Shown one piece after another: positions 11,975 through 12,214 of a DNA stretch of 64,000 nucleotides (the stretch's first letter is position 1; each line of letters begins with the position of its first letter). The stretch lies in contig CAKNJL010000001.1 in the NCBI GenBank assembly GCA_930982035.1, positions 81,031 to 145,030 of the forward strand, read 5' to 3'. Both the position numbers and the translations under genes were made by a program. The DNA is from an uncultured Clostridium sp. (GTDB lineage Bacteria > Bacillota > Clostridia > TANB77 > CAG-508). The notes beneath the pieces are model-generated. The model was not told the DNA's origin and did no database searches. It saw only the letters and a list, made by a program, of their open reading frames with translations.

Positions 11975-11988
11975 TTTAGTCAAAAATC

Positions 11989-12017
11989 TTGACTCTTGCC
12001 GAAATATATCTTATAAT
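11989..12017 (+). promoter_or_regulatory. sigmaA-type promoter
   Basis: TTGACT-17 bp-TATAAT. Confidence 0.8.
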
Positions 12018-12020
12018 ATA

Positions 12021-12097
12021 ATTACATTTAGAGTTGCACATCGAAAGATGTGGAAGTTGTTTTTCAAAGACTAGGTTAGCCTAGTCTTTGCTTTTTG
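12021..12097 (+). ncRNA. Putative sRNA 1 downstream of the MazF-like gene
   Basis: Own promoter, CACATC-GAAA-GATGTG hairpin, terminator CAAAGACTAGG/CCTAGTCTTTG plus T tract; no ORF. Confidence 0.6.
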
Positions 12098-12128
12098 TAA
12101 TAATTTTTTTATATTTGCATATAATATA

Positions 12129-12214
12129 ATTACATTTAATGTTGCACATTTAAATGTGATTAGTTCGTTTATAAACGCTTAAAATCCCTCTACATTGGAG
12201 GGATTTTCTTTTTT
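12129..12214 (+). ncRNA. Putative sRNA 2, paralog of sRNA 1
   Basis: Shares TATAATATAATTACATTTAnnGTTGCACAT; hairpin CACAT-TTAA-ATGTG; terminator AAAATCCCTC/GAGGGATTTT plus T tract. Confidence 0.55.

Follow-up and report, generated by a model that had tools for sequence, protein, structure and literature searches.

We analyzed a 64,000-nucleotide (nt) stretch of DNA from an uncultured Clostridium sp. (GTDB lineage Bacteria; Bacillota; Clostridia; TANB77; CAG-508; GenBank assembly GCA_930982035.1, contig CAKNJL010000001.1, positions 81,031 to 145,030 of the forward strand), referred to below as the window, in which a gene for a MazF/PemK-type ribonuclease (RNase) is followed by two short units that are likely to encode small RNAs (sRNAs). 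The gene occupies positions 11239-11974 of the window, and the units lie at 12024-12097 (unit 1) and 12132-12214 (unit 2), all on the + strand. A preliminary description of this DNA, made from the letters of the window, had proposed that the two RNAs act as decoy or antitoxin for the enzyme.

Unit 1 is about 74 nt long and consists of a predicted 5' single strand ACAUUUAGAGUUG, the stem P1 (12037-12052, CACATC-GAAA-GATGTG), a linker GAAGUUGUUUUUC, a terminator (12065-12090) and a U run. Unit 2, of about 83 nt, has the 5' sequence ACAUUUAAUGUUG, its own P1 (12145-12158, CACAT-TTAA-ATGTG), a second stem P2 (12166-12177, CGUUUAUAAACG), a terminator (12181-12207) and a U run; all these elements are on the + strand. 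The repeat finder reported a sole direct repeat, of 56 nt, in which 12012-12067 and 12120-12175 are 75% identical. The exact start common to both units, the 30-nt sequence TATAATATAATTACATTTANNGTTGCACAT, has two perfect matches in the whole 2.16-Mb assembly, both at this locus, and its reversed control has none in the same assembly. A scan of 11000-12400 returned three terminator-like sites, compared to 0.2 expected from shuffles, of which two close the units and the third is the first stem. Thus, the paired tandem units with a common start, CACAT/ATGTG stems and terminators of their own, as drawn in the preliminary description, were recovered by the repeat finder, by exact pattern matching and by the terminator scan. 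The predicted folds are more stable than those of shuffled sequences (minimum free energy -26.3 kcal/mol and z = -4.9 for unit 1; z = -4.4 for unit 2). Neither unit belongs to an Rfam family, even at permissive thresholds (best E-value 0.23); the top match, RefA9, scores 27 bits against a gathering score of 49 and lies on the opposite strand, over the terminator.

Each unit is preceded by a putative promoter on the + strand. That of unit 1 (11989-12017) has TTGACT and TATAAT separated by a 17-nt spacer and agrees with the consensus at 11 of 12 positions, so that its characterization as near-consensus stands. The promoter of unit 2 (12095-12125) combines TATAAT at 12120-12125 with a weak -35 element, TTGTAA, at a 19-nt spacing, and overlaps the U run of the first terminator. 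The terminator scan of 11000-12400 found no terminator between the toxin stop codon and unit 1; therefore, unit 1 is predicted to be also a part of the 3' untranslated region (UTR) of the toxin, that is, of the toxin transcript in cis. It should be noted that promoter-like hexamers are common in this AT-rich DNA (12 found compared to 12.6 expected). A minus-strand site antisense to the end of the toxin gene (11983..11955, TTGACT-17-TATAAT, 11/12) was rejected as a chance occurrence, since it is not conserved in related loci; among the related loci compared, its AGTCAA is present in the window only.

The enzyme had been taken for a plain 165-amino acid (aa) orphan MazF encoded at 11477-11974. 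This open reading frame (ORF), which matches the Pfam family PemK_toxin with an E-value of 6e-10, covers only the C-terminal portion of a longer gene, which begins at 11239 and specifies 244 aa by way of a CGGN +1 site. A homolog from the same genus, 78% identical, has one open 244-aa frame that also spans the small ORF of the window at 11239-11457, and unshifted 244-aa homologs exist. The protein matches PF02452 with an E-value of 8.6e-10 (39 bits, compared to a cut-off of 23), and hmmscan at E up to 1 gave no Pfam match besides PemK_toxin; PADLOC and NCBIfam gave no match for the toxin, nor did tblastn searches of phage and plasmid collections. The family is small: at E up to 0.001, 365 cluster representatives were retrieved out of 1.84 billion. 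In the AlphaFold2 model built with 47 diverse homologs (predicted local distance difference test score, pLDDT, 89.6; predicted template modeling score, pTM, 0.72), residues 1-103 and 135-241 have the same strand order and final helix and are joined by a linker helix. The top Foldseek matches of the model are S. aureus MazF, B. subtilis YdcE/MazF and B. anthracis MoxT (template modeling score, TM, about 0.75, probability 1.0), the best-matching PDB entries being 1ne8, 4mdx and 4mzm, whereas CptN (4rmo) is a weak fold relative, with a TM of 0.53. An earlier model, from 34 sequences, had a C-domain pLDDT of about 35 and a confident N-domain, which alone matched MazF structures. When the family profile was compared to PDB sequences, no match was found, and the C-domain alone gave only an E-value of about 0.9, to E. 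coli MazF.

Residues E151, R156 and S/T176 of the toxin align with E24 and R29 of E. coli MazF and with the catalytic loop, and G149, E151, R156 and P157 are invariant or nearly so among the 47 homologs. The C-domain retains the GSE...RP loop that the N-domain has lost. The model thus depicts a single-chain tandem MazF, or pseudo-dimer, with a degenerate N-domain (about residues 1-103) and one catalytic PemK half, the C-domain (135-238), and the conserved catalytic set makes this toxin look active. No ORF of the MazE or PemI kind, whether AbrB- or RHH-type, was detected in the 350 nt before the gene or the 300 nt after it, where there is also no Pfam match to such a protein. Among relatives, there is no conserved ORF upstream of the toxin; the upstream conservation is limited to the promoter, and the neighbor genes vary by locus. 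The lack of a nearby MazE-like ORF, pointed out before, is therefore upheld by ORF inspection, by Pfam and by the upstream alignment.

The two frames of the toxin gene meet at CGGA (11443-11446, + strand), at codon 69, which would be read as Gly and is GGA or GGG in unshifted homologs. Compared to the 78% identical homolog, the window has one extra base (AAA-CGGA-TTA versus AAA-GGA-CTT), and when CGGA is taken as a single Gly, an uninterrupted 244-aa protein results. The pattern AAA-CGG-N-TT(A/G) occurs in about 28 GTDB species-representative genomes (including loci L027-L032 and L041-L068), and in none of them is the downstream frame interrupted; all four bases occur at the fourth position and are synonymous there, as any GGN is Gly. 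Two species have plain GGA or GGG and no extra C, and independent metagenome assemblies have the same overlapping gene calls, of 75 aa and 191 aa. Because of this recurrence, the synonymous fourth base, the intact frames and the independent assemblies, we consider CGGN to be neither an assembly error nor the mark of a dead gene. One 244-aa protein would be made only if CGGN is read as one step. We found no paper on CGG +1 decoding in Clostridia in the literature searched.

The two units follow the tandem gene in about 50 loci of uncultured gut Clostridia, down to 39-50% protein identity, and they were also found in independent metagenome assemblies. In the GTDB species-representative genomes, both units lie within about 60 nt 3' of the stop codon in 28 of 32 loci; the organisms come from the guts of humans, chickens, rabbits, goats and sheep, and each of them is an uncultured member of the Clostridia. 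Of the remaining four loci, two have an insertion sequence (IS) between gene and RNAs, one is a decayed gene remnant, and one has a truncated toxin and keeps both RNAs. Using covariance models of unit 1 (R1) and unit 2 (R2), which score 94 bits and 101.7 bits in the window, respectively, we surveyed further genomes. Strong R1 matches (E up to 1e-16) were detected in 10 of the 301 genomes sampled from the bacterial family, and a protein search of the same genomes detected the tandem gene, or its remnant in genome G277, in exactly these 10. Among 401 genomes of the order, an intact close homolog is present in 12, and the RNA in 12 of 12. Two more genomes of this survey, from a different bacterial family, have homologs that are only 39-40% identical; here, R1 missed divergent two-unit modules, in which the downstream units begin with ACAUUAGAUUAA and ACAUUUGAUUAA and the -10 spacing is unchanged. 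According to R2, unit 2 is located beside unit 1 in every locus of the clade of the window. In clades with about 50% protein identity, both units were found in L033, L117 and L119, and only unit 1 in L121 and L113. Conservation of the RNA motifs and co-occurrence beside toxin homologs, which had been set beforehand as a test of the proposal, are thus clearly observed, both in the 28 of 32 loci and in the two genome surveys.

Some relatives of the module adjoin genes for a Mob_Pre relaxase or a phage integrase (L113, 100-1460; L033, 4006-4329; L121, 3251-3753). These neighbors are consistent with carriage on small mobile elements.

The predicted helices bear the marks of selection. In the model-guided alignment of unit 1 (27 sequences), 98.4% of the cells are paired and 13 of 19 pairs have two-sided changes; for unit 2 (26 sequences), the corresponding values are 97.7% and 14 of 19. 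None of 500 shuffles matched the observed pairing, double changes or covariation score, and sliding the partner strand by 1-3 columns caused the pairing to collapse to 31%-64%. Model-guided alignments lean toward the fitted model; the raw MAFFT alignments, however, show the same compensations. The terminators vary freely, with compensation, and the tip of P1 varies in length and sequence, whereas the base of P1 (CACAU/AUGUG), the 5' strand ACAUUUAAU-GUUG and the linker GGAAGUUG are nearly fixed. Among the more distant relatives, P2 of unit 2 is CACUU/AAGUG in the 50%-identity clade, and P1 is inverted (GGUGUA/UACACU) in the P0072 clade. These changes indicate that the helices of both units are under selection, and the pattern of conservation is the one expected if the 5' strand and the base of the hairpin are recognized in a sequence-specific manner.

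In a further reading, the active products would be peptides rather than the RNAs. An 8-codon ORF of unit 1, AUG UGG AAG UUG UUU UUC AAA GAC UAG (MWKLFFKD), is found in most copies of the unit, and some of the differences between copies look synonymous (UUU/UUC), so that the units might encode micro-peptides. This ORF, however, has no Shine-Dalgarno sequence, and its start codon is within stem P1. In L039 and L040 the start codon is replaced by UUG, in L033 the frame and length are altered by a 1-nt insertion, and in unit 2 of the window the corresponding AUG is immediately followed by UGA. We therefore rejected the micro-ORF, which lacks a ribosome-binding site and a conserved start and frame, and consider micro-peptides in general to be extremely improbable as the product of the units.

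The position of the promoters bears on the 5' ends of the RNAs. In every unit of the tandem family examined (both units of the window, of L033, L117, L119, G370 and G467, and the single units of L121 and L113), the A of ACAUU comes 6 nt after the end of the -10 hexamer and is preceded by T. The unit-1 promoter is kept in all related loci, and the -10 box of unit 2 and its 6-nt distance to ACAUU are conserved in related loci. Transcription usually initiates at such a distance from the -10 box, so that the 5' end of the RNAs is most likely pppACAUU, with ACAUUUA as the first nucleotides of both units of the window. Firmicute MazF enzymes cut U^ACAU, and the preliminary description had placed UACAU at both 5' ends. 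TACAT is indeed present in the DNA of both units; its first T, however, is at position -1 of the predicted start, so that the U of UACAU would belong to the promoter and lie outside the RNA. A literal UACAU decoy is doubtful for this reason and for three others: the P0072 clade has ACUUUAGAUU (ACUUUAG) in place of the ACAUU motif and an inverted P1, unit A of the single-domain paralogs described below has AACAU, and in this unit A the -10 box is 12 nt before the motif, so that a short leader probably precedes it. Because the nearest structural relatives of the toxin are MazF enzymes that cut U^ACAU, an RNA beginning with ACAUU would resemble the 3' product of such a cut and could not be cut there. 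In toxin ORFs, ACAUU and UACAU are not avoided compared to codon shuffles (P = 0.71 and 0.11, respectively), an uninformative result.

The same layout recurs with other toxins. The weaker protein matches, at 33-38% identity, are PemK proteins of 160 aa that have a single domain and an N-terminal helix. Two promoter/terminator units come after their genes in 27 of 29 loci (including L005-L013, L022 and L093-L112); L107 has one hybrid unit, and in L105 the units are parted by an insertion. The units of these paralogs begin with ACAUUAGUGUCC or, in a second subtype, with ACAUUGUAAUCC, and a hairpin comes next; the motif recurs within the units, in that motif-hairpin-motif-hairpin is present twice, with four repeats in all. 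A third paralog is found in the genome of the window itself, about 3 kb upstream of it (G000:C1:77789-78109; L024). This protein has 225 aa, an N-terminal helix and a low-complexity tail, and it too is followed by two promoter/terminator units, of different sequence. The 5' motif thus varies with the toxin family, and the start ACAUU recurs, apart from the AACAU of unit A of the single-domain paralogs. Family-specific 5' motifs are what cognate RNA-protein pairs would look like, and one toxin with two downstream sRNA units appears to be a general layout in gut Clostridia.

Several loci show the units separated from the gene. In L048 (2240-3733), L049, G233 and G259, an IS that encodes a 486-aa transposase and has the target duplication AATTTCAGCA lies precisely between the stop codon of the toxin and the promoter of unit 1, and the gene and the RNAs are both intact around it; the same insertion is listed for loci L075 and L076. 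The RNAs are therefore expected to be independent of toxin transcription, and the intact sequences on both sides of the IS support their separate promotion, as proposed. These insertions also bear on the interpretation that the units have no dedicated RNA function and are 3'-UTR stabilizers or terminators together with AT-rich promoter-like sequence, or the ends of a mobile cassette. This interpretation draws on the missing terminator before unit 1, on the chance-level number of promoter-like hexamers, and on a conserved third hairpin after unit 2. However, the IS parts the units from the gene and neither decays. Furthermore, the 5' strand, P1, the linker and P2 are more conserved than the terminators; the -35 and -10 elements and the 6-nt start geometry are kept at both units across clades with 39-50% protein identity; and the paralog families have the same architecture with different sequences. 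We consider it very unlikely that the units lack an RNA function.

The third hairpin is located directly 3' of unit 2, at 12221-12262 (no strand assigned), with the core TCGTAAAT-N8-ATTTACGA at 12230-12253. It is present as a single copy in the window, compared to 0 expected by chance, and at the equivalent place in 26 fetched loci, a count that includes overlapping views of the window locus and near-identical assemblies. In about half of the related loci it comes immediately after unit 2, and in genome G104 it is upstream of an orphan RNA unit. The third hairpin may be a two-way terminator against a convergent gene.

Upstream of the toxin, a promoter-like region at 11086-11114 (+ strand; TTGCTT, 17-nt spacer, TATCAT) is preceded by the conserved sequence GAACAAATGTATTGC. 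This block is kept across the clade of the window in the upstream alignment of 23 loci; its -35 element is weak, and it is for this reason not listed by the consensus scan. We infer that it is the toxin promoter. Throughout the clade, GAACAAATGT(A/G)TTGC (11075-11091) overlaps the -35 element of the toxin and could be an operator. A segment of about 100 nt at 11115-11225, downstream of this promoter and upstream of the ribosome-binding site, contains two hairpins, one of them GTAGCTTATATAAATATATATAAGCTAC; it is present in only some of the related loci and is thus an insert or a variable leader.

In five genomes, the catalytic part of the toxin has been lost and the RNAs have been kept, by five different deletions. 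In G277, the deletion extends from 'GQNIGS' to the end of the gene; G028 has toxin residues 1-52 only; in G449, there is an in-frame fusion from about residue 37 to about residue 217; in G525, the C-domain is removed; and G104 has no tandem toxin and carries a single hybrid unit twice in the genome (L081/L082, on contigs C23 and C1). In this hybrid unit, the 5' half is like unit 1, and P2 and the terminator are like unit 2; one of the copies is beside an AbiEi/AbiEii-like gene pair. In the four deletions that left a remnant, the 3' breakpoint falls within the final ~30 codons of the gene, and the RNA promoter, 10-20 nt further on, is spared in each case. RNA-sparing deletions fit the loss of a toxin whose antitoxin is retained; the statistics are weak, and deletions that remove the whole locus leave no trace in this tally.

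The same genomes can be read in another way, namely that the RNAs are partners of the nuclease other than an antitoxin, such as a cofactor, scaffold, specificity element or sensor RNA, while the N-domain or an unlinked factor restrains the enzyme. If the RNAs were purely an antitoxin, their survival after toxin loss in five genomes would be surprising, except where the deletions are recent. The linkage, the covariation and the 5' motifs that vary by toxin family would fit such a partner equally well, and a tandem MazF is an unusual protein, which might use its dead half to keep an RNA bound permanently. Conversely, we know of no MazF-family enzyme that needs an RNA cofactor, the catalytic residues are those of ordinary free-standing MazF toxins, and the patchy, island-like distribution near Mob_Pre, integrase and IS genes is typical of toxin-antitoxin or defense modules. 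On balance, we regard a partner of this kind as unlikely, with some weight left to it.

The interpretation that we favor is that the two RNAs are an antitoxin that binds the toxin protein, in a manner similar to type III systems; our confidence in it is evenly divided between its being right and its being wrong. It is favored because the RNase is apparently active, there is no conserved protein partner, the gene is strictly linked to two short, structured RNAs with strong putative promoters, the 5' motifs are single-stranded and family-specific, and unit 1 is linked to the toxin in cis. That the RNAs are made, bind the protein and neutralize it is what we infer from evidence that is comparative throughout, namely the anatomy, conservation, covariation and linkage of the units, the fold and catalytic residues of the toxin, and the lack of a conserved protein partner. 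As an antitoxin, both RNAs, of about 75-85 nt and independently transcribed, would bind the toxin directly and hold the RNase inactive. Their 5' ACAUU may lie in the substrate groove in the manner of a 3' product left by a U^ACAU cut, with no bond to cleave. The toxin transcript would carry unit 1 in cis, and the near-consensus promoter of unit 1 would supply an excess of free RNA. Should transcription cease, for instance under phage attack or when the element is lost, these short-lived RNAs would decay and no longer restrain the RNase.

A number of observations weigh against an RNA antitoxin. The RNAs present a target about 4 times smaller than the gene, so that five random deletions would all miss them with a probability of about 0.3, and in L069 a remnant of the toxin is present while the RNAs are absent. 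A pair of units is not required either, since the L113 and L121 clades have a single unit and the paralog locus L107 has one hybrid unit. The P0051 clade (L115) has no RNA unit; in place of the RNAs, L115 has at 2300-2590 a promoter of consensus type, followed by a 73-aa membrane-protein ORF that has a good ribosome-binding site and encodes two hydrophobic helices. In some relatives, a helix-turn-helix (HTH) gene is directly upstream of the toxin (81 aa in L119; a 361-aa HTH-peptidase in L033) and could encode a protein regulator or antitoxin. The degenerate N-domain itself could also restrain the C-domain.

A further point of this kind comes from the duplex scan, in which sliding windows over the whole toxin mRNA were compared to the RNAs. 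The linker and P2 of unit 2 (GAUUAGUUCGUUUAUA, 12159-12175) complement the shift site (UAUUAAACGGAUUAGUU, 11436-11452) with -17 kcal/mol, and the best or second-best duplex of unit 2 is at the shift site (at about nt 200) in six of eight shifted loci (the window, L059, L061, L057, L045 and L065), and not in the unshifted L039, L040 and L033. In the main alternative to an antitoxin that acts on the protein, the RNAs would be base-pairing regulators, type I-like or trans-acting, that block toxin translation or trigger mRNA decay, with unit 2 perhaps controlling the shift site. However, the 64-kb window has 12 equally good duplex sites, or about one per 5 kb, and the pairing of unit 2 leans on many G-U pairs. 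No compensatory change between mRNA and RNA linker is seen: L054 and L056 have the same mRNA sequence and a different RNA, and L062 has the shift and no such duplex. Unshifted clades and single-domain paralogs retain the RNAs; the complementarity of the paralogs' 5' motif to their own toxin mRNA is at most 8-9 nt and wobble-rich, and unit 1 has no consistent duplex site on the toxin mRNA. Base pairing with the toxin mRNA is therefore, in our view, decidedly unlikely as the function of the RNAs.

An RNA antitoxin for this enzyme would have to be placed among the known classes. Similar to the type III systems ToxIN/AbiQ, CptIN and TenpIN, the locus combines an endoribonuclease of Kid/MazF-like fold, without a protein antitoxin, with short, repeated, structured RNA, and its distribution is patchy and island-associated. 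The differences lie in the toxin, which here is in Pfam PemK/MazF and has no Pfam or PADLOC match to ToxN, CptN or TenpN, and in the RNA. In type III systems, the RNA is an upstream tandem direct-repeat array with a terminator before the toxin, whereas here there are two downstream genes, each with its own promoter and terminator, that share only the first ~30 nt, and processing by the toxin is not evident. The claim that this layout is unlike the upstream repeat arrays of toxIN, cptIN and tenpIN is thus borne out. A paper of October 2026 classifies type III systems only as toxIN, cptIN and tenpIN (PMC13682666). In its presumed working, the module resembles type III, and the comparative linkage seen in the surveys is compatible with an RNA that binds and inhibits the toxin; it departs from that type in two features of membership, the toxin family and the upstream array.

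The comparison to type II systems (MazEF/PemIK, such as Kis-Kid, B. subtilis EndoA/EndoAI and S. aureus MazEF) gives the reverse. The PF02452 C-domain and the catalytic Glu/Arg loop are shared, whereas there is no upstream mazE/pemI-type gene, a covalent tandem replaces the homodimer, and two sRNA genes follow; by these comparisons, the locus has the toxin of a MazEF system and appears to lack its antitoxin. Type I systems with enzyme-sized toxins and sRNA antitoxins are exemplified by SymE/SymR and RalR/RalA, in which, as here, a protein-sized nuclease toxin has a small RNA with its own promoter beside the gene. RNAs of the SymR/RalA type, however, act via extended complementarity to the mRNA, compared to a weak and possibly accidental match to the shift site here.

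To our knowledge, MazF/PemK proteins are textbook type II toxins that are always described with a protein antitoxin, and in the literature searched we came across no report of an sRNA antitoxin for a toxin of the PemK/MazF family. A broader claim, which is tentative and in our estimate more probably wrong than right, is that RNases that are bona fide MazF/PemK by sequence form a new RNA-neutralized toxin-antitoxin class, with one or two separately transcribed downstream sRNAs in place of a processed repeat array, a 5'-terminal ACAUU that plugs the active site by mimicking the 3' product of the toxin's own cut, and three insulated cognate families that coexist in gut Clostridia. If an RNA antitoxin is confirmed, true MazF RNases restrained by RNA, in one clade and apparently in several, would make the boundary of type II and type III systems less sharp, and they would explain many MazF genes that are annotated as 'orphan' or 'antitoxin-less'. 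They would also constitute a new RNA-protein recognition pair with family-specific 5' motifs, which could serve as orthogonal RNA-controlled RNase switches. The single-chain tandem MazF is, in addition, a natural experiment in which a homodimeric toxin works with one active site.

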